A stretch of DNA of 64,000 nt, from the NCBI GenBank assembly GCA_010015585.1, contig ML975159.1; one strand, 5' to 3'. The notes under the pieces are model-generated. The model was not told the DNA's origin. It was given only the letters and a program-made list of their open reading frames with translations, and did no database searches. The DNA comes from Eremomyces bilateralis CBS 781.70 (Eukaryota). The translations under genes and the position numbers were made by a program. The stretch's first letter is position 1, and each line of letters begins with the position of its first letter. This document shows positions 23,403-61,099 of this stretch, one piece after another.

Positions 23403-26195
23403 ATGGTTACCTCCATTCCCCGAGTGAGATCGTCTACCCGACGCGTATCGATCGACTATACCAGATATCCCCATGCGTACCGTTATGCGTCATGGTGCGC
23501 GGCTGGATACAGTCCAACCTGCACCGACCGCCGTCCAGGGGAATCAAGCAGGTCCTCCAACTCCAAATCGACCACATATCAGGGCCATCCGACCTACCCC
23601 GCATCAAGTACTCCTCGGCTTCGACGATGCGAGACCCGGTCCTTCCATGGTTGGGGCGGAAGACGATGGCCGCCGGAAGACCATGACGCGCGATATGAAA
23701 GGCTGCGGGAGGAGATGAGTCGGCGGCGGAAGCACATGATGAAGGAACACAGTGACGCTATCGAGCAGTTGAAGAAGAGGATCCAGGAAGATCCGTATGA
23801 TGCTCTGTTCGGATGGAGTAATCGTGTGCGGAGAGGCGAGAACAGACAGCCGAATTCCAAAGAGAAGGACCAGGCGCAGGCGGCTGCGGAGTTGAGGGAT
23901 GGGTCGGATATGGTTGGGGAGCAGAAGGTGGAGGTGATTATTGAGCCGGGGACGATCGAGTTGAGAAGTGCGGAGTTTGAATATGACCCGATCTCGAACC
24001 GGATGGTAGCGAAGGAGGCGCAGAATCTCCAGATGGAGGTTGATGAGCCGGTATCGGAAGCAAAGAGTATCGGAACCGAGCTACCACCGGAAACCATCGA
24101 CGTCGATGCTACTACGTCGAAACCGGTATTGCTAAAGGATGAGCCGCTAGCTGAAGAAGAGCTTGCGTCAAGACCGATCGAAGGGATAGTGGCGCCAATC
24201 TCCCCAGAAGAGATAAAGGCTCCAGAGAAACCCGAACCCCGACTTAACATGCCCGAGGACGATCTTGACTTTCTCCAATCCAGCGATGTCCGTGCATCCA
24301 TGAGCTTGGCTAGCGAAGCCAACTACCGCAGCGATGCGGAGAGGGAACAAGAACGCCTCGAGCTAAAGGATGACTATAGAGAGTTGCAACAGACTACCAC
24401 GAACGAAGAGGTTACTCGCCCGACCCTTCCCAGTGCTCCGACTGCCACCACCATTCCGCAGCCATTGGAGACCTCGCTCGACCGCGTGAACACCGACGCC
24501 GTATCTACCCAGCGCATCAAACGCTTAGATCGAATCTTGAAGCATTTGGACATCATGACCTCCGACATGTTCAGGCAGCAGAAGCACATCGATTCCATGC
24601 AGCGTGCCATGGATGGTGATCGGCCGCAAGTGACCCTCGAACAGATTGGCCTTGGAGAGCGGGGTTCGGCTGAGAAGGCGGAAGTCTCTGAAGCGGGAAA
24701 GAGAAAATCGCACAGGGCGGCACTGTTGAATACATCACTCGAGGAGGAAGTCGACCACGTCAAGGCTGCGATGGCAAAGCTTGAGCAGCGAGCGGAACTC
24801 TCTGTAAACGAGCCGTCGCAGACACCAGAGGTCGATACTCTAGATCCTAACGTAGTAACTCAACAGAAATCCGTGGTCACCGAAGATGGTATGCTCGAGA
24901 ACCAGATACGGACCATATATGAGGGCGAATATGGACTCATCGCGTCCGACGAGCCACAGAAGTTGGCGGCCTCGGAATCTGCACCATTCGAGCTTGACCA
25001 CGAGACGAAAGGGACCCTTCAAGACCTCGTCGGGCGAGCTTCGCAAATCGAAGCAAGGCTTGACGCCCTATTCAACGCCGTTAAACTGGTCCCAATCAGT
25101 CAGGACTCCGAAGCCGAAACAACTTCTAGCCTTGACGCCCTTGCTCAGAGAGTCTCAGCCGTGGATTCAAGGCTCGGCAGCATCATCTCCGCCATTGACC
25201 AACTGACTGCGGAGGCTGAGCACGACCAGAGCCTTGATGGCCTCGTTCAGAGAGTTTCAGCGGTAGACTCACGGATTGATGGCATCATCTCTGCTATTGA
25301 CCAGTTGACGGCGGAGTCTGAGCACGAGAAGAGCCTTGATGGCATCGTTCATAGAGTTTCAGCAGTAGACTCACGGCTCGATGGCATCATCTCTGCTATT
25401 GACCAACTTCCAGCGAAGGTTGAGCAAGGAAAGGCCCCGATCTCCACCAGCCCCGACCCTCACACGAAAGCAGCCCTCGACGACATCACCGAGCGGCTCT
25501 TTCAACTCACCACCAAAATCGACACCGTCTCCTCATCCATCACCCATCTCCAATCAATCAACCACGACGCCAACAGCGACACCAACCAGCTCGCCACCCA
25601 AACCGAAGCCACCCTTCAACATCTCAACGCCCTCATCAACGATCTCGACACCCGCTTCGCCACCCTCGCCGCCACCATCTCGGAGCGTCCCTCCCAGCAA
25701 AACTCGGATCCATCCGCTGCACCGACCACTGCCACTGAGACCGCGGCCCGCCTCCAGGACTTCGTCACCCAACTCGAAGCCATGGACATCAACTTCCGGA
25801 AATTCCGCTGGCATGACCTTTCGCGCTTCGTTGAGATCCGCGAGCAGTTGATCGCGCTGAACTCGGTGGTGAACCCGGAGTCGAAAGGGGAGAGGGGGGG
25901 TCAAGGGGACAGGGGTAGGCCGTTTCGGTTGGAGGGAGGGTGGAGAATTAAGGTGTTGTTAGCGTTGATGGGGGCGGCGACGGTGGGGAATTTGGTGGTG
26001 ACGAAGAGGGGGTTGGAGGGGCAGTGGAGGGGGTTGGAAGCGGAGAGGAGGTTGGCGGGGTTGGAGGAGATGGTTATGGGGAATGGGAGGGGGGCGGAGT
26101 TGGAGTTGGTACCGGTGAGACCGTCGGGGAAGGATATTGTGCGGACTGGGCAGCAGGCTGAGAGTTCGGGGGGTTCGTGGTTTTGGTCGAGATGA
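23403..26195 (+). CDS. Uncharacterised fungal coiled-coil protein (930 aa) with C-terminal hydrophobic segment
   Basis: Long single ORF with an Arg/Ser-rich N-terminus. Motifs DPYDALFGWS, FEYDPISNRMV and DDLDFLQSSDVRAS resemble a conserved Pezizomycotina hypothetical protein. Internal 34-aa repeats. Confidence 0.8.
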   Translation: MVTSIPRVRSSTRRVSIDYTRYPHAYRYASWCAAGYSPTCTDRRPGESSRSSNSKSTTYQGHPTYPASSTPRLRRCETRSFHGWGGRRWPPEDHDARYERLREEMSRRRKHMMKEHSDAIEQLKKRIQEDPYDALFGWSNRVRRGENRQPNSKEKDQAQAAAELRDGSDMVGEQKVEVIIEPGTIELRSAEFEYDPISNRMVAKEAQNLQMEVDEPVSEAKSIGTELPPETIDVDATTSKPVLLKDEPLAEEELASRPIEGIVAPISPEEIKAPEKPEPRLNMPEDDLDFLQSSDVRASMSLASEANYRSDAEREQERLELKDDYRELQQTTTNEEVTRPTLPSAPTATTIPQPLETSLDRVNTDAVSTQRIKRLDRILKHLDIMTSDMFRQQKHIDSMQRAMDGDRPQVTLEQIGLGERGSAEKAEVSEAGKRKSHRAALLNTSLEEEVDHVKAAMAKLEQRAELSVNEPSQTPEVDTLDPNVVTQQKSVVTEDGMLENQIRTIYEGEYGLIASDEPQKLAASESAPFELDHETKGTLQDLVGRASQIEARLDALFNAVKLVPISQDSEAETTSSLDALAQRVSAVDSRLGSIISAIDQLTAEAEHDQSLDGLVQRVSAVDSRIDGIISAIDQLTAESEHEKSLDGIVHRVSAVDSRLDGIISAIDQLPAKVEQGKAPISTSPDPHTKAALDDITERLFQLTTKIDTVSSSITHLQSINHDANSDTNQLATQTEATLQHLNALINDLDTRFATLAATISERPSQQNSDPSAAPTTATETAARLQDFVTQLEAMDINFRKFRWHDLSRFVEIREQLIALNSVVNPESKGERGGQGDRGRPFRLEGGWRIKVLLALMGAATVGNLVVTKRGLEGQWRGLEAERRLAGLEEMVMGNGRGAELELVPVRPSGKDIVRTGQQAESSGGSWFWSR
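25128..25410 (+). repeat. Intragenic 102-bp tandem repeat x ~2.8 (34 aa)
   Basis: Units start at 25128, 25230 and 25332: SLDALAQRVSAVDSRLGSIISAIDQL / SLDGLVQRVSAVDSRIDGIISAIDQL / SLDGIVHRVSAVDSRLDGIISAIDQL. Confidence 0.92.
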
Positions 26196-32633: not shown

Positions 32634-35600
32634 TGTGAAGGATGTGGAAGTATCGATGATACTGGTAAGGGGGAGATGGTTGATGTGAGGAGTTGTATAG
32701 GAGGAAAAGGAGATGTAGAAGACAGATAGATGTGATAGATGTGAGTATCAGATGGTAAGAGAAAGAAAAGGTGCGGAGTCTCGAGGAATTAAAAGGCCAG
32801 GGAAGGGGCCGAAATGGACAAGGAAAGGACGATGGATCAGTGCCCATACCGAGGCTCGTGTCCAGCGCGTCATTCGTGCCATTGATCCCTATCACCTTAG
32901 TCCCGCTAGTGCCGCATCTCCCCGCTCTTTCCCCATATTACCCGACAATTGCACGTGAAAGTCTCGCAAAGCTGCCAACACGTGAGGGGCAAACGCCTCC
33001 CCACAAAGCTCGCGTTGGCCACTGTGAGCCGCCGGAGTTGACAAGCGCGGCGATGTTTCATTCCGACTCGCACTACAACGCGCCTCGGCCTGGTAAACTG
33101 GTCGTATACTCCGATACGGTCGGGACGCCGAAGAGACTAATAAGTACCGTTTCCCGCGTTGATTGCGGGCTAGCTACTTTGGGGGGCGTGTGCGATGGAG
33201 ATACCGAACGGCCAGATCGCGAAATGGAAGTTCCTCCGCAGGAGAGAGTGGTGCTGTGGTCGGTGAGAGGACATTCCGCCATCCTCCATAGCTTCGAAAC
33301 AACCGAGAGGACAAGTCACTCAAATATCGAAGGTATGAACCGAGTCTCCGAACTTCGAAAACAGACTTGGGGAACACGTCCTTTCTTCAACATTCCAGGA
33401 AGCCATCCGTTAGCCTTGGAGCAGTCAAACGGTGATCCGGTTTCGGGGGTCTTATTCTTCTCATAAGTGGTGACATGATCGACATCTAGCCTCATCCTCG
33501 AGTTCGGTGGCTCCAAAACGCGGTAGTAAACAGAAACCCATTGTCCTCCATCGGGAGACGTAGCAAGTTGCTACAACAATACCTAGGATGGAAGCTAAAG
33601 GTTGTCGAGAGGAATGCGACAGGTAGGAATCGCCTGAAATACATTTCCTCCGACTATTACATATGATTCGGTTGAAGTCTTGGTCTTGATTGTCGTGCTG
33701 GGGCTTCTTTTGTGAACTCATGCACTTCATAGCAAGTATTCGTGGTTTCATATCCATTTTCTGTTCAATATGATAGTTGACAGGCAAGCAAGGGAACTCG
33801 ATATTCACCGCGCTTTAGGATGCCGATATGCTCTCCGAGCCGCTGTGAGGGAATGCAAGATTTCACGCTCTCGTAGGAGAGAGGATTAGCTTGCAATAAA
33901 ATACTCTCGTGTCGACCTCGTTCGAGGATTCGCGAGCGGAGCTGGTCGACGGAGATCAGCCCATATGGACTCAATGCGGAAATCAACCGACCAAGTCCGG
34001 CGTTTCTCAACAGCTATGGAATTTAGGAACGTCTCTCGGTGCCTTTTGTCGTGGAAGGGTTGGAAGCATGACGGAGATGAAGTCGGAGGCCCGCCGATTG
34101 GAATCCGCCACCTGTTGCTAGAATTATCGAAATCTGTGTATTCAATGCTGCCTGATCCTAAGTAGCCTACATAGAAACCTCCCCTCTACGTGAAGTCCAT
34201 TTAAGAGCCTCTTCCGACAGTCCACTACTTTCGGAAAGTATTGTTTCTTGGCATGGTCCCATATGAGGTGCGCTTCTTTGTAATGTAATAGATGGACTAA
34301 AGTAACCAAGATCACGATAGATGACCCCCTTGCGGAACTCCTCATCATGGATTTTGGCCTTGCAGTCGTATTCAACCAGTCTGGCAGGTCTTTCTTACCC
34401 TTATGGTCGGGTCAATTCACGATGCCCATTACGGCTTGGTTGATCCCGTCCGAGCCAATTCCGTCGTCACAAGCCTCACGGATCATAGCCCAAGTTCCAA
34501 GGCGCCATTTAGCTACGTAGAGACCCTGTACTAGTGTTGAGTAAACTAGGTAAGTAGTTGAATATGGAAATACTTACCATTGTTCCCCTACCAAGGTCTG
34601 CAACCGCCGCTCGCTCGACGGGGCCCCTACCGCAGCTATTATCGGACACAACTCCGAAGAAAGAGGCTACCGCTTGACTAAACACCTAGACATTCCATTC
34701 TCCTTAGTTTCAGGCTTTAGCCTTCACGGTTCACCTAGAATTCGCGACATTTTTCATAGAGGAGTGGGCTAGTGAGCTGGGCACGCACGGCACGATACAA
34801 GGACCGTGACGCCATTGAGGGTGGAATCTAGTGGAATCGGCGACGACGGTCTCGAGAATGCGATATAGTACGCGCTGGCAAAAGTACTGGAAATTGTCCT
34901 TGAGACCGGTATTTTGCTCGACATCTTTCTTTTTAGATACTCGCTTGCCGGAAACGGTAGCCTGCATATTCCTCTTGATGTAAAGGAGAAATACTCCGTA
35001 GAGCAGAGGGAAGAAAATGATATAGAGGTCGAAGGTCATCACCACCACCCCAGTCTCTTCAATATCCTTCCCCGCGTCTGGCCTTCATCCATCTGACGAA
35101 GGTTGGTTCGCGACTGCTATAAATCGCTTTGTGGTATTTTCCAATCAGTTCAAAGAACCGTCATCTATTTAATATAAGGCTCTCGTTATCCAGCTCCCAA
35201 CATCTACCGCGATTGTCAAACGATAGGTATTGGATGAGGGCCCGCTCTGCTCGCTGACTTCCATTGGTGTGCTTGGGTTGCTTTCATTACCGCTTGTCTT
35301 TAGGTGCTGTGTTTGGCGTATGCGCCGCGCCATGGGCTTTGATAGAGCGTGTCGAGGACTTTAGACAGGTAAATCAGTAATGGCCGGAAGACTATAATTC
35401 GTGTAAGTAGGAATATGAACGCGTTGAATCGAACTCTGCGTCCCAAGGACGATGAAAATAGAACTGAAGTTCGAGAGAGCGGTTTCTCAAGTTGCACAAT
35501 CTCTACGGTGTACTGTCACTCTGTTAGCCCAGCCGACAGCCACAGCCGCTTTTGCTTTTTTTCCTTCATCAGACGGGATGACCGTGCGACAAGTCTGCAT

Positions 35601-36250: not shown

Positions 36251-38733
36251 TCACTGAACGGTCAAAATCGCCGGGCCCGTCAAGTTCGCGCTCGAGGTGC
36301 CCATGTTGATCTCAAACTCACCAGCCTCGACCACATACTGCATCTTGATGTTCCACAGACCCAATTCCTCTACCTTCACCGGGATCTCCACTTCCAGAGA
36401 CTCGCCCGCCTTGATCATCACCTTCTTGAACCCCTTGAGCACCTTGTTCGGCACAGTGATGCTGGCGATGAGATCGCTCACGTACAACTGGACCACTTCC
36501 TGACCATCCCTGCCACTGGCATTCGTCACCGTCACCTTTGCGGTCACGGTATCCCCCTTCTTCGCCGTCTCCTGCGACAGTGTGACGTTCGAGTACACAA
36601 ATGTCGAATAGCTCTTGCCGTAGCCGAACTCGTACAACGGCACCGGCGTCCCCAGAACATACTGATGTCCAAACTCTAGTTCACCAGTCGTCTCATTCAG
36701 CCCTCCGGCCTCCAGCGACCGCCCACTGTTCAGATAATCATAGAAAATCGGCAAGCTCCCGACATCGGTCGGAATGCCCACGCTCAACTTTCCACTGGGG
36801 TTCACGTCCCCGAACAGCACGTCCGCCAACGCATTACCACCCTCTTCTCCAGGGTAGAACTGCTGCACCAGCGCAGCCGCCTTCTTGCTAATCCACGGCT
36901 CGGTGACCGGCTTCCCTGACGAAAACACTACAACCGTCGGCGTATCCGTCTCCAAAATCGCACGCACAAGCGCCGCCTGCGCACCCACAAGGTTCAGCGA
37001 GTTCACGTCAACGTGCTCGCCGGTCGTGGCGTTCAGACCTGCCCAGAGCTCGTTCTGGTCGCGCGACCAGGTGCCGACGACAACGACGGCGATGTCGGCG
37101 GCGCTGGCGACGGAGGCGGCGGCGGGGATGGCCGATTCGTCGTTGGACCAGCGCTCACAACCTTTGGCGTAGGTGACGGTGCCGGTGGAGGCGGATTGGA
37201 TGCCGGCGAGGGGGGTGATGCCGCGGTATTGGGAGAGGTGGACAACGTAATCGCCATACTGGGGAGGGAAGGTTAGCGAAGATGCTCGGGTGGGGTCAGT
37301 GGAGGTACTTACGTTCATGAAACCGTCGGCCATGGGACCGATGACGGCGATGTTTGCGTCCTTTTTGAGAGGGAGGAGGTTGTTGTTGTTCTCAAGCAGA
37401 ACGATGGACTCGGCGTCCAACTCTCGTGCAAGCTTGATATGTTCCGGTGTATGAATCAACTTTGAGGTCTTGTTTGCTGGGGCAGCGAGATATGGGTTCT
37501 CGAACAGGCCCATGGCGAACTTCGCTCGGAGGACGCGCGAGACGGCAGTGTCCACAGTCTTGATATCCAACTCCTTGGACTCGATGAGCGCAGGGATGGT
37601 CTTGAAATTGAAGGATCCGCCACCCATCTCGACGTCATTGCCGGCTGGTAGAACATACTTCGTCACGGCCTCCGAATCGATTGGGTCTGATCGGCACATC
37701 TTGAAGGCGTTGCAGAGACGGTCCGTGCCGCCAGCGTCGGACATGACGAAGTACTGGTAGCCCCATTCTTCGCGGAGGATCTATTCGAGAGCGTTGGTTC
37801 AGCACCACGAGCATATGAGAGCAGATGTTTAATGTCACTCACCTCAGTCATCAGATGATGGTCCATCACTGCCGGGATCCCATCGTATGAATCGTATGCA
37901 CTCATCACCGAGTATGCACCGCCATCCATAATGGTCCTCTTGAACGGCGGCAACCACGTGGTCCGCATCTCCCGCTCACCTCCATGTACCGGCCCCGTAT
38001 TCAATCCCTGTTCCGGCATGCTAAATCCGGCGAAATGCTTCACCATTGCGCTGACATTACCGGCTTGCAGCCCCTTGACATAGGAGTATCCCATCTCTCC
38101 AGATAGATGCACATCCTCGCCGAATGTCTCTTCAACACGCCCGAAGCGTAGCTCCCGAGCAAGGTCGACCACCGGAGCAAAGATCTGGTTGACGCCGAGC
38201 GCGAGCGACTCCTGCGCGATTGCGTAAGCCATCTTCTCGACGAGGTCGGGGTTGAACGAGCAAGCATATGCGATGGGGCTGTTGAAGATCGTGGCATTCT
38301 CGATCAGGAACCCGTGGATGCCTTCCGATTGCACGAAGGCTGGGATCCCGAGGGTGGTGTTGTGCAGAAGGTAATCCTGTCCCTTCTTGACGTTCTCGGC
38401 GATCCATTGCTGCGGAACGGGATAGCCGACGTAGAAGGAACCGGACTTGGAGGCCATGGAGTCGATGAGGCCGGAAACGTTGAAGGCATTGGTGGTGCTG
38501 TTCATCCAGTTGCCAACATCGCCTTGCATGAGTTGAGACACCTTGTCGGAGAGGGTCATGCGGGAAAGGAGGTCCTTGACGCGAGATTCGACATCTGCGG
38601 TAGGGTCCTTGTAAACCACACCATTCGAAGGGTTAGGTTTCCCATGGCCAGGTTGGTTCCCGTGACCACGATCATCGGCTGCCAACACTGATGAACTGGC
38701 AAGGAGAGAAAGGAGGAAGTGTCGTAGAGCCAT
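36251..38733 (-). CDS. Secreted GH3 glycosidase, resembling isoprimeverose-producing oligoxyloglucan hydrolase (IpeA subfamily)
   Basis: Signal peptide MALRHFLLSLLASSSVLA. SQLMQGD, FYVGYPVP, DLARELRFGRVEETFGED, KHFAGF, nucleophile region VMSDAGG, WSRDQNELWAGLNATTGEHVD, C-terminal Fn3-like domain. GH3 is secure; the IpeA subfamily call rests on recalled similarity. Confidence 0.9.
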
Positions 38734-40047
38734 CGTATCGACTGTGCCCCGTAGGCTTCAATTCAGACTTTGGCACTGCTCAAGAACGAGATACCATCAG
38801 CACCATCATCCTGAAGAGGTGCATCCGCCATGTTTATATCCTTTCCAAGGGCAAATTACTAGTTTCCGAGTAACCGGAGTGGAATTACACACATCAGTAA
38901 TGACGTCCTGATGCCAGATGAAACCATGTACCTGCATCTTGGATTTCCTAGCTCTTCCTTCATGGAGACAATTTCATCCCGCCCTACCTCTATTCAATAT
39001 CAGATCGACATATTGAAGCTCGGCGGTCCTCTGCTGACAAGGTCATGGCAGAATGTTCCTGGCCCTTTCCCCGGCATTTTTCCAATTTCCGGGACCCCAG
39101 ATTGAGCCATCATTACAGCCGGCAGGGCATCGTGAACTCTTCATAACCATTTAGCCAAAAGGCAATAGCAATTTACGATGATATCGCTGGCCGGGAGATT
39201 GACATGCGATGAGATGAAATCTCTGGAAATGAGAAGGTTGAAAAAAGCGTCGAAGGTGGCGTAGTAAGACCGAACCATCCCTTGGCGCAGCGCGATGATT
39301 GAGCCGGACGAGGAAATGGCGCCCTCTCGCCTCTCAGCATCCTGGCGATGCTCGCTTGATGGGTGACCCATCCTGCGATTCATTCATTAGGATTTCATCC
39401 ATGCCCCTTGTTCTTCCGCAACTCCACACTCCAACTACTAGGGATAATTTCGGGGATATTTAGGCTAAACGGGATGCACCATGCACCCCGCGACACTGTG
39501 TTTACGCTGACATGACTCCGATCTGGATGCAGCCGATGGTCAAAAATTTGATAGGATCCCATGACAATGAGGAGATGATTCGTCCCCACTTCCTCCGTTA
39601 TCAACGGGCGTTGGCGCGCCATCCCCTTCCTCGGAGCTCTCTATAGCATTTTTGCCGGGACCCGCGCCGGACGCTAGATAGTAGATGAGCTGGCGCCATG
39701 GACTAGATTGCTGACGCCAGTGAGGAAGCTTAAAAGAGCTAGGATGATGGGAAGGATATTCTTCCACGGTTCCACCCCAGATCAGACGTCGGTCTAGCCA
39801 CAAAAATGGGTAAATTCAAAAATGGATATGGGGCTCCATGGGGTGAGCAGAATATCGGAACCGCTACTGGCACGTGGAATGGGGATGAAATGGTTTCTCG
39901 GGAAAGACTGGAGAGTTTGGGACTCGTTGGTCTAGTCTTTATATACCTTGCGACATCCCCAAAGTTTCGCATGGCAAGCTGAACGTCTTGAGTGTGCTGG
40001 AATCTGGAGAACCTTACCAGTGCAGATCAATCCATCAGGTCGCAATC

Positions 40048-41813
40048 ATGGGCAAGTTTTTCATGATCTCGCTCGCGATCTTCGCGGCCACAGGGTATGT
40101 ATCCAACATCCACTCGAGGAGCGTCAGGTCAAACTAACGTTCCCCAGATCCTTCCTGTTCGGCTACGACAGTGGTGTCATGACCGACGTGATCCAATCTC
40201 CCCATTTCCTCACCTACTTCAACACCAGCAAGACCTCTCCCATCATTGGTGCCATCAATTCTACCTTCTCCGGTGGTGCCGTGTTTGGATCCCTCATGGG
40301 AGGGTTCACGATGGATCGGCTCGGCCGAAAATGGACAATCATGATCGGAGCTATGATCTGTTTTGTTGGTGCTATCCTGCAGGCGGCGGCCGTCCACCTC
40401 GCGATGATGTTGGTGGGTAGAATTATGGCGGGATGGGCTGTCGGGTTGATGAGCATGAGTGTACCGGTCTACCAGAGCGAGTGCGCGCATCCAAAGATTC
40501 GAGGTACGGGACACTTGAGGATGATGAGAAATCACCGACTGATTTGACTAGGTCTGGTTGTTGGTATGGCACAACAGATGATAGGAGTCGGTTTCATCGT
40601 CTCGACTTGGATCGGATACGGTGCTGCACATGTTCCGGCGACGAACGCCTTCTCATGGCGGTTTCCCCTGGCTTTCCAGACGGTGCCTTGTGTGATCCTG
40701 CTGATCGGTCTGCCGTTCTTCCCGGAATCACCGCGTCACTTGATGGAGCATGGCGAGGAAGATGAGGCAATGAGAGTGGTATGTATCCTGCGAAAGCCTC
40801 TGCCACCGAACCCAGCTGACGTTCGTCAAAGCTCAACAAGCTGCACTACGACGGGACCAATCAGGAATGGATCCAATCCGAATTCGAAGAGATCCGAAGC
40901 ACTATTAGTGCCGAAAAGGCCATCACTGCTCCTGGATGGTTGGTTATGTTCAAGGTTCCTCAGTGGAGAAACCGTCTGCTTCAGGCGACACTGGTTCAAG
41001 TGTTCACTCAGATGACAGGGTATGTTCTCCCAGCGTACACTTCCCGAAGCTCCGCTAATAGCCCTAGTATCAACGTCATTGGTTATTACCAGACCATCAT
41101 GTACGAATTCCTTGGCATCACTGGTCAGAGGAACTTGCTCGTAACAGGTATCTACAACTGCGTTGGACCTTTCGCCAGTAAGTCCCCTTCAGTCGGTCAT
41201 TTGGAAACAATACTTACACCTTGTAGATTTGATCTTCATCGTCTTTATCCTGGACCGTCTCGGCCGACGAATTCCCCTCCTGGTCGGTACCGTCGCCATC
41301 ACCATCGCCCTCATCTGCGAAGCGGCCATCAACTCCCAGATCCCCCAACCCGTCGACGGAGAAGTCATCGAGGCACATTCGGGCGACGGCAAATCGATCG
41401 CTGGCGTCTTCTTCATCTTCTGCGTCACCGTCATCTTCTCGGGGTCCTTCGGCTCCATCTCCTGGGTCTACATGAGTGAGATCATGCCCATGCAAATCCG
41501 TGGCCGCGGCAGTGCCTTCGCCACCGGAATTGGCAACTGGCTGGTTAGCACCATCTGGAGTCAAGTGTCTCCCATCGGTCTCGGTGCGATTACCTGGAAG
41601 TACTACTTCATCTTCATCGCGTTCAACATCCTGATTACATTCCCCACCATCTATTTCACATTCAAGGAGACGAAGCAGATGTCGTTGGAGGAGATCGATC
41701 TGCTGTTCGGTGGAAGGGCGCTCGGCACACTTCCAGAGGATCTGGATAAGGATGTGGTGAGGGATGGATCGGTGACGTTCGTGGCAGAGAAGGAGACTAA
41801 GTTGGAGGCGTAG
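40048..41813 (+). CDS. MFS sugar porter (SP family), multi-exon
   Basis: MGKFFMISLAIFAATG/SFLFGYDSGV, DRLGRK, GRIMAGWAVG, PVYQSECAHPKIRG, PESPR, QMTG/INVIGYY, DRLGRR, SWVYMSEIMPMQIRGRG, KETKQMSLEEID. Confidence 0.93.
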
Positions 41814-42530: not shown

Positions 42531-42748
42531 TGTTCTTACTATGTTAAACTTGTATAACTAATAAACATATTTTATTTTATCAAGAACAGGAAACCCCACC
42601 ATCATATTAAAACCGTCTTTCCAACTTACATCAAACAGTACTCAACCATAGGTTGCCTTTACTCCGAGCGACAACCACATCCCAATTGCAGCGCACATTC
42701 GGCCTTAATACCCACCCCTACTCGAACAAATTATCCAAACACCGCAAA

Positions 42749-43174
42749 ATGACCTCAATCACCCACCAACCAACCATCCACACCTACCACTGCCTCTGTA
42801 CCCAACTCCTCCTCGCAACCCCCCACCCCCTCCCCACCTACCCTCGGCGCGCGCCCCCCTCCCTTGACCGCGCCTACATCCTCCCTCTCTCTCCCTCCTC
42901 ACCAACAACCGACCACCCCACGACATCCCTCGCCCTCCCCGACACCACACCGCAAATCATCCGCCGCGCCGACGGGTTCGAGAGGCGCTATTGGCAGCGC
43001 TGTGGGCGGTGTCGGTTGGTGGTGGGGTATTTTCTAGGTCGGGCGCAGGGGGATGCGGAAGGGGAGAGGGGGGTGGGGGCTGAGGGGCCGTGGGGGGAGG
43101 TGTTGTATGTGTTCCCGGGGGGGTTGGTGGGGACGGAAGAGATGGTGGGAGGGGGGGAGGGGGTGGTGCGGTGA
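42749..43174 (+). CDS. STEEP1/CXorf56 (UPF0428)-like small protein
   Basis: IHTYHCLCTQLLLA, PRRAPPSLDRAYILP, IRRADGFERRYWQRCGRCRLVVGY. Confidence 0.78.
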   Translation: MTSITHQPTIHTYHCLCTQLLLATPHPLPTYPRRAPPSLDRAYILPLSPSSPTTDHPTTSLALPDTTPQIIRRADGFERRYWQRCGRCRLVVGYFLGRAQGDAEGERGVGAEGPWGEVLYVFPGGLVGTEEMVGGGEGVVR

Positions 43175-43939: not shown

Positions 43940-46043
43940 TTAACGCACGCCGTTCGCCAGCGCCGGAGGATGGCCGTTGGGTTGCCCCTTCACATCCCCG
44001 TTGGTCAACGTGTCCGAGACGCCGTCAACCGTAGCGATTCCCTTATCGACGGCATGAATCAACTTTTCCATATCTTGAAGTCCCAGGCCGTCGAAGAGGG
44101 GGAAGATGCCCTCGGTCTTGCGGAAGTCGTTGTGGACTATGAAGTGTTAGGTACGGGCAGTGGAGGGAACGAGAGGCTGGGAGAGTGGGGGCCTACCGAT
44201 ATTCACCAGATAGTACGTGTCCATCATGTCCTCGATCACGTAGCGCGACTGGTTCGTGGCGGAATAGCAATTCGCCCAATCCTGTCCAAGCCGGTAGAAT
44301 TCATCTTTCCACGCCAGGAAACTGACCGTCTCGACAATGGTCGGCTGCACGATTTCTTTGCCGGGGAAGACGCCCCAGGTGACCGCGTTCGGCCCATCAC
44401 CCGGCGCATTCGTCTTCAGCTCCCCGGCTTTGTTGACGGCGTAGTAGGTCATGTCGGGATTCCGCTCGATGCGCGTGATCAGCTCGCTAATCATCTCCGG
44501 CGAGACAAAACTCTCGAGGTACGCTTTCTGGAAGACGTAGCCGTTCCGCGGTCCCCAGCCGTAGACAGGATGCGTCGACTTCTCACCATCGACGGGCGGC
44601 TGCGAATTGATGGTGAAGATGCCACGGGTGTTCAGGTCGACGAGTTCTCCTCGCAGAACGTCCGACTCCAGGGACAGCGGATTTTCACTCCACGGCAGAT
44701 GATCGAGCTTGCCCTGCATGTACTTCACGAACAGGTTCGAGATATCCCGGATGGTGGACGGTTCGCCCCAGAGCTTGACGTTCGCCTCATTGGTGCCCTT
44801 CAGGCCGATGCCGTAGGCGTCCAGCTCGCCGAACGCGGGGGAGCGGGAGTCGCCCCAGCGGCCGTTGGGAAATTCATCCCAGTCTTGCGTGCGGACGACA
44901 TAGGATCGGTTGCGATTGCGCCAGAAGATGGGGCGGACGTTTTCTTCGCGGCGTTTGAGGCCTTTGGAGGGGCGCCAGGGGAGGGGTTTCTCAAGAGGGC
45001 TCTCGAGGTCGGGAACGAGGTTGAGGTCTTCTAGGACCATGCGGGTAGCCTGGGCGAGGTTCATGGTATAGCTAGATGATGTTAGTATGATTTTGGCAGG
45101 ATGAAGGGTTCCCATACAAATGCAGGTGGTTGATGCCGCCAGCCAGAAGACGTTTGCACATTTCCACAATCAACTCCCGTCCGACGTCTCGGACAGCAGC
45201 ATCGTCATTCTTGACTGGCTCCAACGCCTCCATCCACGCCTTTGGTACGTTGCATTCAGTCCAATTCGCTCGGCGGATAAACGCACCGTACGTATGAATC
45301 GGCATGATTCCTGGGATAATAGGCACGGTAATGCCAGCCTCCCGGACTTTCCGTAGCCAGTCGAGGAAAATGTCGGTATCGTAAAACATCTGCGTGATCA
45401 CAAAAGTGCCACCCGCATCGACCTTCTCCTTCAGATGGCGGATGAGTTCGTCCGTGTTCTTGTTGTCGTCGCACCCCTCAGAATAACCCGCCACACCGAT
45501 ATCGAAGTGATCCCCGTATTGGCTCCGGATGTACTTCACCAGGTCCCGCGCATATTGGAATCCGCCTTGCGATGCCACCCACTTTTCGTTCTCTCGGGGC
45601 GGGTCGCCGCGGAGGGCAAGAATGTTCGTGCATCCCGAGTTATAGGCTTCTTTTAGCGCGTCGTCGATTTTTGATTTCTCCATGTCGGTGCACGTGAGGT
45701 GCATGCATGTCTCCAGTCCATACACGGACTGAGCCACCTTGACCATCTCGCAGGTCAACCCTGAGTGTCGCCCACCAGCACCCCATGTGACGTCGATGAA
45801 TGTTGGTCCAAGGTCATGCATGCGATCCATGCCTAAGAACGGTCAGTGGAATGTCGACAGTTAGCTCGTACTAAGGAACCCACGATCATAGAGATTTTGA
45901 ACACCCTATCCAACATGTTAGGTACAGCGAAAATATGATCATGTACCGTGACGTACCTGTGCAGTTTTCGGCGGGAAGAATTCAAACGAAATGGACGGCC
46001 GTCCAGCCTCTTCGGCCGCCCGTAGTCTTTCGGAGATATGCAT
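43940..46043 (-). CDS. MET13: Methylenetetrahydrofolate reductase (Met13-type), multi-exon
   Basis: SFEFFPPKTAQ/GVQNLYD (22-nt microexon), FIDVTWGAGG, TCMHLTCT, NILALRGDPP, ITQMFYD, PIIPGIMPI. Regulatory domain WDEFPNGRWGDSRSPAFG and NAVTWGVFPGKEIVQPT. Confidence 0.93.
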
Positions 46044-47599: not shown

Positions 47600-47976
47600 A
47601 TAAAGGCGGATGAATTGTATCGTCTCGCAGAACTGCTTTTGTCAATAGATCTCCTTGATATGACGACGATAAGATTCCGGGGTATCCGGCACCCAAGCCG
47701 TTAAATCATCCTCATCAATATTGCTCATTTCTATCGATCAACAGAACAATTGATCCTTTGGTGGTCGACCTACTCTAGCGCTGATGAGATGTTTGGCTCG
47801 ACAGTCGCTCACCACGCGAAGATCGGCGGGCATCGTCCCCTATGTAGCCGTCCTCCGTGCTCGAAATAAATCAGATCGAACGACCGGATATTAGTTATTT
47901 CACTAGTTATGTATTTCCCTATTTAACGATCCAACTTCTAAGCTGACTAGCGATGACACCCAAGAACTCGCTTGGT

Positions 47977-48032
47977 CCCCGGCTAAAGGGTTAATGTCTA
48001 GACCCCCCACCTCCAGTCGCATTTAGCCGGGG
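47977..48032. promoter_or_regulatory. Inverted pair of XlnR/Xyr1-type sites (CGGCTAAA) upstream of GH31
   Basis: CCCCGGCTAAA (47977-47987) and TTTAGCCGGGG (48022-48032) form a perfect 11-bp inverted repeat with a 34-bp spacer, about 200 bp upstream of the ATG. Confidence 0.6.
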
Positions 48033-48235: not shown

Positions 48236-50651
48236 ATGAGGTTCCGCGATGGTACGTGATCCAATTCCTCTGTACAATCCCATTCTAACCCACCGTTCAA
48301 GGCATGTGGCTTACAGCCGCCGATAAAACAATCCAATACGCCGAAGACATCTACTCTATCAACCAATCTGGCGATGAACGGTCTCTGGAGTTACTCTGTC
48401 CGACAAAGCGCATCCGATCTCGTGGTGACACTCTCAACTGTCCCACCGTCACCATCAAGCTCGAGGCGGTTATCGATGGCGTCATCTCCGTCGAAGCAAC
48501 CCATTGGGCCGGCCAACGTCGTCTCGGTCCCGACTTCGAGCTGTTCCCGGATGGCAAGCCGGAATCCGCGGCGAGCATCACCACAGGCGAGAAGGGCACG
48601 GCGTTGACCTCCGGGGGCCTCACCGCCACCGTCAGCCCGGATCCGCATGAGTTTGAGATTCGGTTCAGTGGGCATGATGGGAGGGAGGTGACAAGCCTGT
48701 TGAACAGGAGTGTTGGGTTTGCGTATACCCCCGCGACCGGGAACATGAAGGTCGTCGAGGATATGCGGAAAACGCAGCATTATATGTTCACACAGACAGA
48801 GCTCGGGGTGGGCGAGTCGGTCCATGGACTGGGAGAGAGGTTTGGAGCGTTCAATAAGGTTGGACAGCATGTTGAGGTTTGGAACGAGGATGGGTGAGTT
48901 TATGTTGACGCATGAAATACCCATGGGCGCTGACAATATCAAGTGGCACGTCCTCCGACCAAGCATACAAGAACATCTCCTTCTGGCTCAGCTCCCGCGG
49001 CTACGGTGTCTTCATCGACACTCCTGAACACATCGATCTCGAAATCGGGAGCGAACGAAGCTGCAGAGTGCAGACGGCAGTGGAGTCCCAGCGTCTCAAA
49101 TGGTACCTCATATACGGGCCAACGCCCAAAGAGGTTTTGACCAAATACACCATCCTCACCGGGAAATCCGGCAAAGTCCCCGCCTGGAGCTTCGGACTTT
49201 GGCTCACCACCTCCTTCACCACCAACTACGACGAAGCCACCGTCACCGACTGGCTCAGCCAGATGCAAACCCGCAAGATCCCCCTCGAAGTTTTCCACTA
49301 CGACTGCTTCTGGCTCCGCGCCTTCCACTGGTGCGACTTCGTCTTCTCCAAGGACCACTTCCCCGACCCCAAAGGCTCCATGACGCGCCTCAAGTCCTCC
49401 AAACTCGCCAACAAGGTCTGCGTCTGGATCAACCCCTACCTCGGCCAAGCCTCCCCCGTCTTCGCCGAAGCCGCCGAGAAAGGCTACCTCGTCAAGCGCC
49501 TCAACGGTGACGTCTGGCAATGGGACCTCTGGCAAGCCGGCATGGCCCTCGTTGACTTCACCAACCCGGCCGCCCGCAAATGGTACGTCTCCTGCCTCGA
49601 GCAACTCTTCGACACTGGCGTCGACTGCCTCAAGACCGACTTCGGCGAGCGCATCCCCTCGGCCGACGTCCAGTGGCACGACCCCACCGTCGACCCCAAG
49701 AAAATGCACAACTACTACTCCTTCATGTTCAACCAACTCGCCTACGAGGCCCTCCAGAACCGCTTCGGCGCCGACCAAGCCGTCCTCTTCGCCCGCTCCG
49801 CCACCGCCGGCACCCAGCGCTTTCCCCTCTGTTGGGGCGGTGACTGCGAGTCCACCGCCCCGGCCCTCGCGGAATCCATCCGCGGCGGCCTGTCCATCGG
49901 CCTGTCGGGCTTCTCCTTCTGGTCGTGCGACATCGGTGGGTTCGAGGGCAACCCCGCGCCGTGGATCTACAAGCGGTGGGTGGCGTTCGGACTGTTCTGC
50001 TCACACTCGCGTCTGCACGGGAGCAACTCGTACCGGGTGCCGTGGCTCATCGACGGAGACTCACAGGAGCCGGAGAACGCCACCGACGTGGTGCGGCATT
50101 TCGTGCGGGTGAAGCGGCGGTTGATGCCGTATTTGTTCGCGGAGGCGAAGGAGGCGGCGGAGAATGGATGGCCGATGAGCTTAAGGGCGATGGGCCTGGA
50201 GTTCCCGGAGGATCAGACGGCGTGGTTCTGTGATCGCCAGTTCATGGTAGGGAAGAGCCTGTTGGTGGCGCCGGTGTTCACCGAGGAGGGCGATGTGGAG
50301 TTCTATCTGCCCGAGGGCAAGTGGACGAGCTGGTGGGATGGCCATGTTGAGGTTGGCCCGAAGTGGGTGAAGGAGAAGCACGGGTTCCTGACGCTGCCGG
50401 TGTACGTTCGGGAGCGGTCGGTGTTGGTGCTTGGGAGTGAGGATGAGGCGGAGAAGGGAGAGGGCTTCGGGTATGACTGGGTGAAGCAGGGCGCGGAGGT
50501 GAAGTTATATCACACGCAGGCAGGAGACAGCTTCACGGTTGTTGATCGTGAAGGGAAGGATGTTGTGACGCTGGAGGTTGGCGCTGGTAACACTGTCAGC
50601 GGCCTGGACAAGATCGAAGGAACGTGGTCTTCGACCGTTGCAGTTAGATGA
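48236..50651 (+). CDS. Intracellular GH31 alpha-xylosidase (YicI/AxyA-like), 3 exons
   Basis: MRFRD/GMW start with no signal peptide. GLGERFG, WNEDG/GTSSDQAYKNI, WSFGLWLTTSFTTNYDE, catalytic KTDFGERIP and WGGDC, WSCDIGGFEG, SHSRLHGSNSYRVPW. Confidence 0.93.
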
Positions 50652-50785: not shown

Positions 50786-51825
50786 TCACTGCTTCTTCGC
50801 CTCCCTCTCCCTCTTCCTCAGCGCCCTCTTCCTCACCGCCTCATGCATCGTCTTATTCTGCGCCAACACCACCCCACTCCTCGCCCCTACCAAAGTCTCA
50901 ATCCCCCACTGCATCACCGCATGGCTCCAATATGGCGTCATCTGATACGCCGACCCCTGGCTCCCCCCTGCCCTCCCGATGCTCCGCAACGTCGCGCGCA
51001 CAAACGTCCGCGTGCTCGGCACCATCATCGTCGTCCGCCGCAGCTTCGACATCGCGCTCACCACCAGGTGGCTCTGCACGCACTGCACCGTCACGCCGGC
51101 CGGGGCCAGCTCGGCGCCCAGCGCGGCCGACCACGCTTGAAGGAACGCTTTGCTACCGGAGTAGGTGGCGAGGAGCGGGGTGGGGAAGACGCCGGCGAAC
51201 GACGCCATGGTGAGGATGAGGCCGCGTTTGCGCTGGACCATGGCAGGGGTGAGGGCCTGGGTGACGCGGAGGGTGGCGTGGCAGTTGATGTTGATGATGT
51301 TCTCTAGTTCGTCGCGATCGGTCTCAATGAAGGGGACGGGGATGGAGTGGGATTGGCCGACATTGTTGACGAGGATGGCGACGTCGAGGGGAGCGGCTTG
51401 GGCGGCGAGTGCGCGGTAGTCGGCGTCGGTGGCAGCCGAGAAGTCGATGGCGAGAGTAGCGGTTTGGACATTATAGGTGCGAGCGATGTCGGTGGCCAGG
51501 TCGTCGAGCTTGGATTTGGTACGAGAGACGAGGAAGACGTTGAAGCCGGCTTTGGCGAGCTGGTTGGCGAATTCTTTGCCGATGCCGTCGGAGGCTCCGG
51601 TGATAACTGCCCAGCTGCCTTTGGGTCCGAACGTTCGTAGCTGGAGGTGGTGTTAGCTCATGATGCGTTTCAGAGACCTTTAGAGCTACTCACGGAAGTT
51701 CCTGGGAGGATAAACAGGTCACCTAGCAGGCGAAGGTAGCTCAGAATCTTCGCGGAGATGTACACGAGCCCAATGACCGCGAAGACCTGGATTGCCGGAC
51801 TCGACGCATACTCAATGAAATCCAT
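50786..51825 (-). CDS. IFA38: Very-long-chain 3-oxoacyl-CoA reductase (SDR), 2 exons
   Basis: [61 protein letters not shown], and a basic C-terminus ending KKQ. Confidence 0.92.
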
Positions 51826-52192: not shown

Positions 52193-52715
52193 ATGGACGC
52201 CATCACAGCCTATCTCCCGCAACACGCTGGTTTTCTTCCGAAGTGGCTCTTTTTCGTAAATACTCAATGATCACTCTATTCGTTTTTAGACTACAGTACA
52301 ACTAACCATACAATCACCACCTCAGACCGGCATCATCTCCATCGGCAACAGCATCCAAGCCTACTCCACCCTCGAATTCACCAAACGAGTCTACAACGGC
52401 GCTCCCACAGCCGATGGCAAAGACACCGACAAGAAGCTCTCCGCCGCCAGCCCCGTCACCCCACTCGCCGCGCACCTCTTCGCCACATGGACCTTCACCT
52501 CCGCCATGGTCCGTCTCATCGCAGCGTACCACATCACCACCCCGCCGATCTTCTGGCTAGCGTTCGTGACATATACCATTGCATTTTCGCACTTCGGCGC
52601 GGAGTGGCTCATTTATGGGAACACCAAATTGGGGGCGGGATTGGCGGGGCCGCTGGTGGTGAGCACGAGTACGATCGCTTGGATGTTGTTGACCTGGCAG
52701 GAGTATTTGGGCTAG
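52193..52715 (+). CDS. ERG28: Ergosterol biosynthesis scaffold protein Erg28, 2 exons
   Basis: GFLPKWLFF / ISIGNSIQAY...VTPLAAHLFATWT...AFSHFGAEWLIYG. Confidence 0.9.
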
Positions 52716-52746: not shown

Positions 52747-54169
<1,423 letters not shown>

Positions 54170-57292: not shown

Positions 57293-59148
57293 AGTTCAAC
57301 CCCCTGCTTCCTGCGCAACCCCCAAGCTGCGCAGTTCCACCAATTCGCTCAAGAGCAGCATCTTTTATACTACCTACATTGAAAACGCGTTCAATCTACC
57401 AAAACCGTGTACTTTTTAAAATTAATTCCATTTCCTAATATGGCAACTCATGATGAACGAATATCAGGTGCTTTACACGCAATTTCTAGTGGCGAGACCA
57501 ACTCCATCAGAGATACAGCCAGACTGTTTGAAGTTAACGAATCTACCCTCCGCCTTCGCCTTTCCGGCTCAAAATCTCGGTCTATCGCCCAACAGGATGC
57601 CCAACGCCTTACACCGGCTCAGGAGGCCTTTCTGACCGATTGGATCTTGGATTCAGATGCACAAGGATTTGCACCAACCCACGCACGCGTGCGGGAAATG
57701 ACATCGCGAATCCTCGACCTACAGACCGAAGAAACCCCCCTCGGCAAGAATTGGGTTACCGGTTTCCTCCGCCGTAACCCACGCGTTAAACCTTGCTTAG
57801 GCAAGAAGCTCGATGCTGTACGACATAAGGCTTCAACGGAAGAGGTGATCACGCGGTTTTACGAGCACTTTCGTACGGTGGTAGCCGACCATGACGTTTC
57901 CGCAGACGATACATACAATATGGATGAGGTTGGGGTCGGAATTGGTATAGGAGCGAATTCTATTGTGATCGCAGACTCACAGAAGTCCGTTACGACATTG
58001 GTGGGACAGGAGACGCGTGAATGGATATCAATTGTTGAGACAGTCTCTGCGACTGGGCGGGCGCTGAACCCGGCCGTGATCCAGAAAGGCGCTTCCCTCC
58101 AGAGCTCCTGGTTTCCGGAAAACGCGCCAAATTGGTATTACGACGTGTCGCCGAACGGATGGACCTCGAATGAGATCGCTGTAAAGTGGTTGCGCGAGGT
58201 ATTCCTCAAGGAAACCGCGACGAATCGCCAATACCGGATATTGGTACTCGACGGGCATGGGAGCCACGCGACGATCGATTTTCTGTATTTATGCAGGATT
58301 AGCAAGGTGGTGGTAGTCTTCCTACCTCCTCATACCTCCCATATCCTTCAACCGCTGGATCTTGCCTGTTTTTCACCGCTGAAACGATTCTACAAGGCTC
58401 TTCTTCGAAATGCAGCTTATATCGATAACGCGATACCGATTAAGCGCAGGAAATTCATCGTATTATACGCAAAAGCCCGTGACAATAGGCTCTCTCCTCG
58501 TACGATTCGCTCAGGATGGAAAGCTGCAGGTCTCGTCCCATTTAACGTGGAGAAGGGCCTCCAGAACCGGTTCGTTAACCGGTCGGTCCTACCACCGCCG
58601 CCATCACCCTTATCACCCACATCACCGACCCCACGGCCTACCGGGACGCGTCAGACGATACTTTTCTCTACGCCCGTCAAGCCTAAACAGGTTTACAGTA
58701 CCTTAAAGGCAATGTCGGGCAATAATCGCGTGGGCAAAGGCACGCAGAGGATTCTCAGAAAGGCGGCGAAGGCTATCGGCATATTTCAGACCCGCCAGGC
58801 TCTATCTGATGCCAAAATCGCGCATCTAGAAGCTCGCCTAGAGACTGCTCTAGCACCTAAAAGGAAAAAGAAGGTCCAGGTAGACCTGAATGAGCGATTC
58901 GCACGGGTTGAGGAGATCAAGGCTGCTCAGGTCCAGGCCGCGACTGCGGTAGAGGACTACCAACGCAAAAACACGGAAGTTGACCTCGTAAAAAGGTCGA
59001 AGGATCTCTCTACACTTAATTCTACCTCTTGCTTAAACGAATTTCAAATATAATGTACTTTGGTAGAGATATAGAGTCTCAAAGAGGTTTTGCCCAAATG
59101 GTGGAACTGCGCAGCTGGGGGGTTGCGCAGGAAGCAGGGGGTTGAACT
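57293..59148 (+). mobile_element. Intact pogo/Fot1-family DNA transposon (1856 bp)
   Basis: ~50-bp TIRs (agttcaaccccctgcttcctgcgcaaccccc[a/c]agctgcgcagttccacca) with 1 mismatch. TA target-site duplication at 57291-57292 and 59149-59150. Confidence 0.95.
57440..59053 (+). CDS. pogo/Fot1 transposase (HTH_psq, CENP-B HTH, DDE_1)
   Basis: Uninterrupted 537-aa ORF with LGKNWVTGFLRR, YNMDEVG, NGWTSNE, LVLDGHGSH and PPHTSHILQPLD. Confidence 0.93.
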   Translation: MATHDERISGALHAISSGETNSIRDTARLFEVNESTLRLRLSGSKSRSIAQQDAQRLTPAQEAFLTDWILDSDAQGFAPTHARVREMTSRILDLQTEETPLGKNWVTGFLRRNPRVKPCLGKKLDAVRHKASTEEVITRFYEHFRTVVADHDVSADDTYNMDEVGVGIGIGANSIVIADSQKSVTTLVGQETREWISIVETVSATGRALNPAVIQKGASLQSSWFPENAPNWYYDVSPNGWTSNEIAVKWLREVFLKETATNRQYRILVLDGHGSHATIDFLYLCRISKVVVVFLPPHTSHILQPLDLACFSPLKRFYKALLRNAAYIDNAIPIKRRKFIVLYAKARDNRLSPRTIRSGWKAAGLVPFNVEKGLQNRFVNRSVLPPPPSPLSPTSPTPRPTGTRQTILFSTPVKPKQVYSTLKAMSGNNRVGKGTQRILRKAAKAIGIFQTRQALSDAKIAHLEARLETALAPKRKKKVQVDLNERFARVEEIKAAQVQAATAVEDYQRKNTEVDLVKRSKDLSTLNSTSCLNEFQI

Positions 59149-60562: not shown

Positions 60563-61099
60563 ATATTTTCCAATTAAGCAATCAAAAAAGTAGACTGAAT
60601 TTGCGTATGTACGTGTTTTTCAGCGTATCTCAAGATACAGTGTATGGCGATCGAATTTAGTGATTTTCGGGGGTGTGCCCAGAGTCGTGATGACTGCATA
60701 CGATCATTAGGGTCTGAGCGCTTCGGTTTGGATCACAATTCACAAAACTTAATGAGATTGGCGGAACAATCTGATCGGAACGCCTCATCACTTGTGATTC
60801 GACGACATGCTTCGGCAACAGCCATAGTTCGGTCCAACCGACCAGCTTAGCGCCTGCTTAGCGCCAGAGCACGGTCAAATCGCAGACACGAGGCTGAGAC
60901 CGTGGACAGGGCACTGTGGAGTGACCGGAATATACGCAGCCTTGGGCCAGAACTTATAATGGCCTTTCTCTGCCGCTACGGTCGTCGTCCTTGTTCTTCA
61001 AGGGCAACTCAACTCTCGCTTCTTCGTTAACGTAGGCAAACCGCACAACCTGTCATTCCACCCGCCCATCTGCCGGCCTGGCGCGCTTCCCTCCACACC

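Follow-up and report, generated by a model that had tools for sequence, protein, structure and literature searches.

In Escherichia coli K-12, the gene for YicI, a cytosolic alpha-xylosidase of glycoside hydrolase family 31 (GH31), is abutted by yicJ, annotated as a 'putative xyloside transporter', and xylP-xylQ of Lactobacillus pentosus form a further alpha-xylosidase/xyloside-transporter pair. YicJ and XylP are both carriers of the GPH family. Fungal permeases are also found paired with cytosolic glycosidases, as in the yeast MAL loci, in the pairing of CDT-1/CDT-2 of Neurospora crassa with an intracellular beta-glucosidase, and with the lactose permeases of Aspergillus nidulans. The L. pentosus pair has been cited as the model, and import of isoprimeverose (Xyl-alpha-1,6-Glc) into fungal cells by a disaccharide transporter, followed by intracellular cleavage, was proposed by Jabbour et al. 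in 2013, who termed the idea 'unproven' (PMC3652757). The CDT permeases and LacpA/B have been placed in porter clade H (PMC5968117). Here, we examine a gene for a Sugar Porter of the major facilitator superfamily (MFS), located at positions 40048–41813 on the plus strand of a 64,000-nucleotide stretch of contig ML975159.1 (assembly GCA_010015585.1) from Eremomyces bilateralis CBS 781.70, as a candidate for the fungal isoprimeverose importer. This whole stretch is referred to as the window.

In the xyloglucan pathway of Aspergillus oryzae (IpeA, AxyA, AxyB and LacA) described by Matsuzawa and co-workers, IpeA releases isoprimeverose, and AxyA is intracellular with a Km of 0.20 mM for isoprimeverose, which is preferred over larger oligosaccharides (PMC10792220). 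The window resembles this system in encoding relatives of both IpeA and AxyA, but the available text of two A. oryzae papers (PMC10792220, PMC11975219) names no transporter, does not contain the word 'transport' and describes no clustering. What the locus shares with yicJ-yicI is a membrane carrier encoded near a GH31 alpha-xylosidase predicted to be cytosolic. Unlike YicJ and XylP, the fungal carrier belongs to the Sugar Porter family (PF00083), and the fungal set adds a GH3 enzyme, predicted to be secreted, that would produce the disaccharide. No homology to YicJ was detectable when the public protein for the porter gene (P0001) was compared with it using BLASTP (best E 2.7), and the porter would therefore be an analogue rather than a homologue of YicJ. 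The fungal permease-glycosidase pairs are similar in layout, as they too consist of a Sugar Porter carrier and a cytosolic glycosidase that splits the imported di- or oligosaccharide, with the genes often linked, but the substrate and the partners (GH31 and an IpeA-type GH3) differ. The carrier family and the import-then-split layout are familiar, and what would be new is a substrate with no known fungal carrier and a three-gene module that we did not find described. An02g08230 of A. niger, AN5050 of A. nidulans and Afu3g12170 of A. fumigatus belong to the same orthogroup as the porter and are entries in transcriptome tables only, with no function assigned. The initial annotation had recorded no characterised fungal isoprimeverose transporter, and none was found in the literature searched, which did not cover the subscription journals that hold most of the A. 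oryzae work.

The porter gene is intact. It is open in no single frame, and the frame shifts fall at five short introns that were placed by eye and then verified by script. The six exons are at 40048–40094, 40148–40503, 40552–40778, 40832–41019, 41068–41177 and 41227–41813, with the ATG at 40048–40050 and a TAG stop codon at 41811–41813. The introns (40095–40147, 40504–40551, 40779–40831, 41020–41067 and 41178–41226) are 48–53 nt long with GT..AG ends; their 5' ends are GTATGT, GTACGG or GTAAGT, and the 3' ends are CAG or TAG in four of the five and AAG in the other. The spliced coding sequence of 1,515 nt is open and predicts a protein of 504 amino acids. The public protein P0001 (Eremomyces bilateralis CBS 781.70, Dothideomycetes), which was retrieved by a search with the last exon, is 520 aa in length. 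It reads through intron 4 (41020–41067; 48 nt, in frame, stop-free and with the ends GTATGT...TAG), which adds 16 residues after ...FTQMTG, within the conserved motif of transmembrane helix 7 (TM7). None of the 13 orthologues of other species in the alignment contains this insert, and each is colinear with the 504-aa model. That model, with intron 4 spliced out, was therefore taken as correct.

P0001 matched the Pfam Sugar_tr profile (PF00083) over positions 2–452 of 452 with a score of 294.7 bits (cut-off 22.3; E 1.7e-87), and two of the exon translations also matched it individually (E 2.8e-28 and 6.5e-22). The signatures of the Sugar Porter family are D-R/K-x-G-R-R/K loops, PESPR and a PETK-like motif, and P0001 contains DRLGRK, PESPRHL, DRLGRR and KETKQ. 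The porter therefore belongs to the Sugar Porter family of the MFS. In an alignment of 32 orthologues, the mean column identity was 64%, the protein was full-length with every transport motif retained, and P192-E193-S194-P195-R196, D335, G338-R339 and E473-T474 were invariant. Sugar Porters have twelve transmembrane helices, and a crude Kyte–Doolittle scan revealed about 9–10 clear hydrophobic peaks, with TM2 and TM7 weaker. The aspartate in TM1 (FGYD) and the arginine of the IRG motif are also invariant. As we take these two residues to be the proton-coupling pair, by analogy with work on XylE and STP10, symport is suggested, and the porter is probably a plasma-membrane proton symporter. The sequences in TM1 and TM7 are GSFLFGYD and FTQMTG, respectively, and the canonical GGxxxGxD and QQLxG motifs were not found at these positions. 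Those motifs typify clades D, E and F of the hexose/pentose porters (Peng et al. 2018, PMC5968117). The nearest solved structures are of monosaccharide symporters, STP10 (E 8.8e-41), GlcP and XylE, all distant, and the names assigned automatically in the ESM Atlas were 'General substrate transporter' and 'Sugar transporter STL1'. Neither the PDB neighbours nor the automatic names nor the motifs fix the substrate.

Head-to-head with the porter is a GH3 gene (36251–38733, minus strand) made up of two exons with an intron at ~37781–37836. The divergent intergenic region between them (38734–40047) is 1,314 bp from ATG to ATG and includes TATA-like boxes ~100 bp from either ATG. GGCTAR cores occur in it three times, SYGGRG sites nine times and CGGN8CCG once, at 39656. 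The GH3 has a three-domain architecture (Pfam Glyco_hydro_3, Glyco_hydro_3_C and Fn3-like), and its N-terminus, MALRHFLLSLLASSSVLAADD, resembles a secretion signal. The best PDB matches were to IpeA of A. oryzae (5YOT/7EAP), to which the C part matched at E 1.2e-206 and the N part at 6.9e-122, and the next chains that are not IpeA had E values of 2.9e-79 and 2e-48. The architecture, the wide margin by which IpeA is nearest and the signal-like N-terminus identify it as a predicted secreted enzyme of the IpeA (isoprimeverose-producing oligoxyloglucan hydrolase) type. An isoprimeverose-producing enzyme (IPase) from Phaeoacremonium that is only 65% identical to IpeA is functional (PMC6325624). IpeA-like GH3s with 64% identity were also seen in Lipomyces (P0375 and P0399), a budding-yeast lineage outside the Pezizomycotina.

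The GH31 gene (48236–50651, plus strand; exons 48236–48251, 48302 to ~48894 and ~48945 to 50651) encodes a protein with GH31 domains and 54% identity to YicI of E. coli (299/555; E 4.3e-201). The 16-nt first exon (MRFRDG) is followed by MWLTAADK, consistent with the N-terminus of the public protein P0197 (MRFRDGMWL). This start aligns colinearly with that of YicI, a signal peptide is absent, and the product is predicted to be a cytosolic alpha-xylosidase of the YicI/AxyA type. Thus, the cytosolic alpha-xylosidase, the IpeA-like GH3 and the 1.3-kb bidirectional intergenic region common to GH3 and porter, all of which had been named in the initial annotation, were borne out. YicI is, we presume, a member of subfamily GH31_3. 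AxyA has been assigned to the same subfamily (PMC10792220). Database matches to the window GH31 at E<=1e-50 numbered 7,995, of mixed origin, and fungal orthologues are widespread. The 54% identity of a fungal GH31 to YicI raises the question of whether this subfamily was transferred between bacteria and fungi long ago.

The predicted locations of the two enzymes extend to their relatives. Among full-length database orthologue models, a hydrophobic 9-mer was present in the first 28 residues in none of 98 GH31 and in 92 of 113 GH3, using a crude Kyte–Doolittle test in which the window GH3 fell just under the threshold despite an obvious hydrophobic core. With the producing GH3 outside the cell and the consuming GH31 inside it, the disaccharide needs a membrane carrier. 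In the proposed pathway, the secreted IpeA-like GH3 would cut isoprimeverose off xyloglucan oligosaccharides outside the cell, the porter would import it, probably by proton symport, and the cytosolic YicI/AxyA-type GH31 would then cleave it to xylose and glucose. We infer isoprimeverose as the substrate, the inward direction of transport, the proton coupling and the co-regulation of the genes, and consider it reasonably likely that isoprimeverose import is the main function of the porter.

To examine the neighbourhood of the porter elsewhere, the 32 aligned orthologues were used to scan metagenome contigs. Of the 253 confirmed relatives, the best 80 were kept with up to 10 kb on either side, and neighbours were detected by tblastn with the proteins encoded next to the porter in the window, many of the loci being short and some duplicates. 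A YicI-like GH31 was found in 30 of the 80 loci (59–68% identical to that of the window, except for one 143-aa fragment at 48–49%), an IpeA-like GH3 in 17 (60–71% identical), and either enzyme in 34. As a control, the STEEP1, MTHFR, SDR and galactose-1-phosphate uridylyltransferase (GalT) genes of the window were searched for in the same way and matched in none of the 80. The loci collapse to 60 groups at 97% porter identity. An enzyme gene was present in 23 of the 45 groups that had 1 kb or more to one side of the porter (11 both, 10 GH31 only and two GH3 only), and when only the 19 well-flanked groups (5 kb or more upstream and 2.5 kb or more downstream) were considered, GH31 was present in 13, ten of which also included GH3. 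In a ~36-Mb genome, the chance that a given gene is no more than 10 kb from another that is present in one or two copies is estimated at ~1/1000. A lack of GH3 or GH31 genes beside orthologues elsewhere had been named in the initial annotation as a result that would count against the transporter, and the association was instead strong and specific (13 of 19 groups; control 0 of 80 loci). No fourth conserved cluster gene (such as a regulator, beta-galactosidase or fucosidase) common to the loci was found beyond lineage-level synteny. At that level, the recurrent neighbour in Pleosporales-like loci encodes an EthD-domain protein, that in Sordariales-like loci a GMC oxidoreductase and that in Hortaea-like loci a flavin monooxygenase.

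Four gene orders were seen. In the first (GH31>porter>), the two genes are in tandem on the same strand, ~500 bp apart. The second (<GH3 porter> <GH31), with GH3 divergent from the porter and GH31 convergent behind it, is the layout of the window prior to displacement of GH31. In the third (<GH3 GH31> porter>), GH3 is divergent from GH31 and the porter is behind GH31, and in the fourth (<GH31 GH3> porter>), GH31 is divergent from GH3 and the porter is behind GH3. In a tree of the query-anchored porter sequences each order was confined to its own clade, and the linkage is therefore not due to general synteny. The nearest named proteins for these clades were from Alternaria/Pyrenophora (93–95%), Cenococcum (98%), Chaetomiaceae (89–91%) and Pseudogymnoascus-like Leotiomycetes (83–88%), and the lineages with linked loci resemble Pleosporales, Cenococcum, Sordariales and Leotiomycetes. 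Since the porter tree broadly tracks the fungal classes, the porter looks to have been inherited vertically with its linkage kept through rearrangement. The linkage of the permease and its presumed cognate glycosidase is conserved across distant taxa, through rearrangement.

Named genomes were compared by hand using the locus tags and contigs in the tables of porter, GH31 and GH3 matches (best 120 clusters each). Consecutive tags were found for all three genes in Malbranchea cinnamomea (porter VTO42DRAFT_4131, GH3 4132 and GH31 4133, on one 21-kb contig), for the porter and GH3 in Helicocarpus (AJ79_02060 and 02061), Polytolypa (AJ80_03282 and 03281) and Chlorociboria (B7494_g1362 and g1361), and for the porter and GH31 in Thermocarpiscus (VTK56DRAFT_5114 and 5115) and Hymenoscyphus albidus (HYALB_00000274 and 275). 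Among the matches listed, the porter and GH31 were on a contig of equal size in 23 of 26 species, including contigs of 11.6, 21 and 39 kb, and the porter and GH3 in 22 of 31, where equal size indicates the same contig but not adjacency if the contig spans megabases. The conserved linkage with GH3 and GH31 supports the porter as a candidate isoprimeverose transporter, as first annotated, with the substrate still read from context. With somewhat more hesitation, we also favour the wider proposal that this orthogroup represents the so far missing isoprimeverose:H+ symporter of fungi, part of an old three-gene module with IpeA- and AxyA-type enzymes that would have been kept through rearrangement in at least the Dothideomycetes, Sordariomycetes, Leotiomycetes and Onygenales, with the task of XylP/YicJ carried out by an unrelated carrier family.

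Expression data were available for the A. niger orthologue An02g08230 as duplicate microarray signals on 22 carbon sources (PMC5968117 supplement 4). The signal on xyloglucan (1298 / 1408) was the second-highest of the 22; on xylose it was 263 / 264 vs 48 / 39 in an xlnR deletant, on glucose 47 / 47, and on sucrose and maltose 27–36 (PMC5968117). An02g08230 is XlnR-dependent. A further table has three columns, which we take to stand for glucose, wheat straw, and wheat straw with added glucose. The row for An02g08230 in it reads 1.0 / 105.4 / 0.8 (PMC3415456), and this is one of two further A. niger studies in which An02g08230 is among the lignocellulose-induced transporters.

In a de novo k-mer count over the promoters of 24 clusters (23 groups and the window), the top enriched 8-mer was CGGCTAAA, with 8 observed vs 0.7 expected (11-fold). 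Two such sites are 210–250 bp upstream of the GH31 ATG in the window (47980–47987, plus strand; 48022–48029, minus strand). The 14.9 kb upstream of porters contained 14 CGGNTAAW sites, spread over 11 of the 24 promoters. By comparison, 200 first-order Markov shuffles gave 2.2 on average and 7 at most, and the rate over all loci was 0.14 per kb, but these counts lose weight as evidence for the proposal because the promoters are not phylogenetically independent and the background includes coding DNA. We take CGGNTAAW/GGCTAA to be an XlnR/AraR-type site, and regard the enrichment as supportive only of possible co-regulation. CGGN8CCG-like palindromes are typical of the sites of zinc-cluster factors, and were present at 39656–39669 in the GH3-porter spacer and at 47687–47700 upstream of GH31. 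They were not accepted as regulatory sites, as their number is near the chance expectation, and are a lead only.

Several observations weigh against isoprimeverose import by a dedicated three-gene module. Of the genomic context put forward in the initial annotation, the enzyme types and the adjacency to GH3 stood, but GH31 is not adjacent to the porter in the window; it is 6.4 kb away and parted from it by two apparently unrelated housekeeping genes identified using Pfam, a STEEP1-domain gene (42611–43171, plus strand) and an MTHFR gene (44150–45842, minus strand). Neither enzyme was found within 10 kb in six of the 19 well-flanked groups, namely L022 (Thermoascus-like), L080 and L079 (Helotiales-like), L054 and L029 (Hortaea-like) and L057. 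The nearest named proteins for these groups were from Thermoascus (97%), Leptodontidium (97%), Hyaloscypha (90%), Hortaea-like fungi (73–78%) and Bombardia (84%), and the genes around the porter were unrelated except in L057. In this Sordariales-like locus, the porter orthologue is followed at a distance of 6.7 kb by an 850-aa single-exon GH3 gene (L057:18441–20990), for which the IpeA-like queries gave no match at E 1e-10 or better.

In the named genomes, again among the matches listed, the contigs of the porter and GH31 differ in three of 26 species (Recurvomyces, Hortaea and Botrytis hyacinthi) and those of the porter and GH3 in nine of 31, the mismatches including Botrytis cinerea, Sclerotinia, Monilinia, Leptodontidium, Drepanopeziza, Pleomassaria, Plenodomus, Phyllosticta and Aspergillus oleicola. 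In B. cinerea the porter (BCIN_07g05910) is on chromosome 7 and GH3 (BCIN_06g04840) on chromosome 6. In Sclerotinia sclerotiorum GH3 (SS1G_09366) adjoins GH31 (SS1G_09367) with the porter elsewhere (SS1G_09710). The two enzyme genes are labelled 'beta-glucosidase' and 'alpha-xylosidase', respectively, and all three genes rise late in infection, like many wall-degrading genes (PMC5372324). Trichoderma and Fusarium are among the GH31 matches listed but not among the best 120 porter clusters. The further points on this side concern expression, the promoter and the name. Signals for An02g08230 were 1456 / 1663 on galactan, 949 / 1061 on galacturonate and about 500–650 on cellulose, mannan and inulin (PMC5968117), so that expression is not xyloglucan-specific, and the profile looks to be partly general derepression. 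The spacer that includes the window's own porter promoter (38734–40047) contains no CGGNTAAW site. Lastly, the automatic names and the Atlas group the porter with 'STL1'-type porters, a neighbourhood that includes pentose and polyol carriers (PMC5968117).

The alternative that survives best is a broader importer of alpha-xylosides and xyloglucan oligosaccharides (XXXG-type oligomers or several small xylosylated glucans), which would take isoprimeverose only as one among other substrates, or to a minor extent, with GH31 trimming what is imported. The same synteny fits it, the porter pairs more tightly with GH31 (13 of 19) than with GH3 (10 of 19), and AxyA also takes xylose off the non-reducing end of oligosaccharides (PMC10792220). 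However, AxyA favours isoprimeverose over XXXG and XLLG (PMC10792220), the co-clustered GH3 is predicted to be secreted and would yield the disaccharide outside the cell, and neither a cytosolic beta-glucosidase nor a beta-galactosidase was found to be co-conserved in the porter loci. We consider a broader importer unlikely. A proton symporter for xylose and/or glucose, or another monosaccharide or polyol, that is co-regulated through an XlnR-type factor and takes up extracellular end products is marginally less probable again. The XlnR dependence of the A. niger orthologue on xylose and its expression on many carbon sources, the CGGNTAAW-type sites enriched upstream of porters, the STL1-like automatic names and the closest solved structures would all suit such a carrier. 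It would have no reason, however, to stay beside a cytosolic alpha-xylosidase across four independent rearrangements in several classes, no pentose-catabolic gene was found to be co-conserved in the porter loci, and GGxxxGxD and QQLxG, which mark the hexose and pentose clades, are missing from the porter. That the porter is instead a sensor (transceptor) of xyloglucan breakdown products, or carries an unrelated substrate and has a functionally meaningless linkage, as the loss of linkage in several lineages and the broad expression in A. niger might suggest, is very improbable given a full-length protein conserved with all of its transport motifs and a linkage that has outlasted rearrangement in at least four lineages while other neighbours were kept in none of the 80 loci.

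Beyond GH31, the window encodes an SDR directly after it (50789–51652, minus strand), Erg28 (52290–52712, plus strand) and GalT (53065–53923, minus strand). Xyloglucan contains galactose, yet GalT and SDR were in none of the 80 related loci. An uninterrupted 556-aa open reading frame (ORF) at 57383–59050 with HTH_psq, HTH_Tnp_Tc5 and DDE_1 domains encodes a pogo/Tc5-type transposase, which may still be intact. From 61031 to 64000 a PNP_UDP_1-like domain is followed by NACHT/NPHP3_N and then by ankyrin repeats that run past the end of the window, as in a fungal NLR-type gene. A 935-aa open frame at 23388–26192 had no Pfam match at E<=0.001, nor did the ORFs at 4447–5556 and 32759–33463.

Isoprimeverose import by the porter remains the preferred reading, and no better candidate is available for the fungal isoprimeverose importer that has long been postulated. 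Xyloglucan is a major hemicellulose. In industrial saccharification, the alpha-linked xylose tied up in isoprimeverose goes to waste, as yeast cannot use this disaccharide (PMC3652757). If the proposed function is correct, the porter and GH31 would make up a two-gene cassette for yeasts engineered to consume isoprimeverose. A specific and widely conserved candidate makes fungal isoprimeverose import directly testable, and the finding points to a compact, previously undescribed gene cluster for the xyloglucan disaccharide in filamentous ascomycetes.

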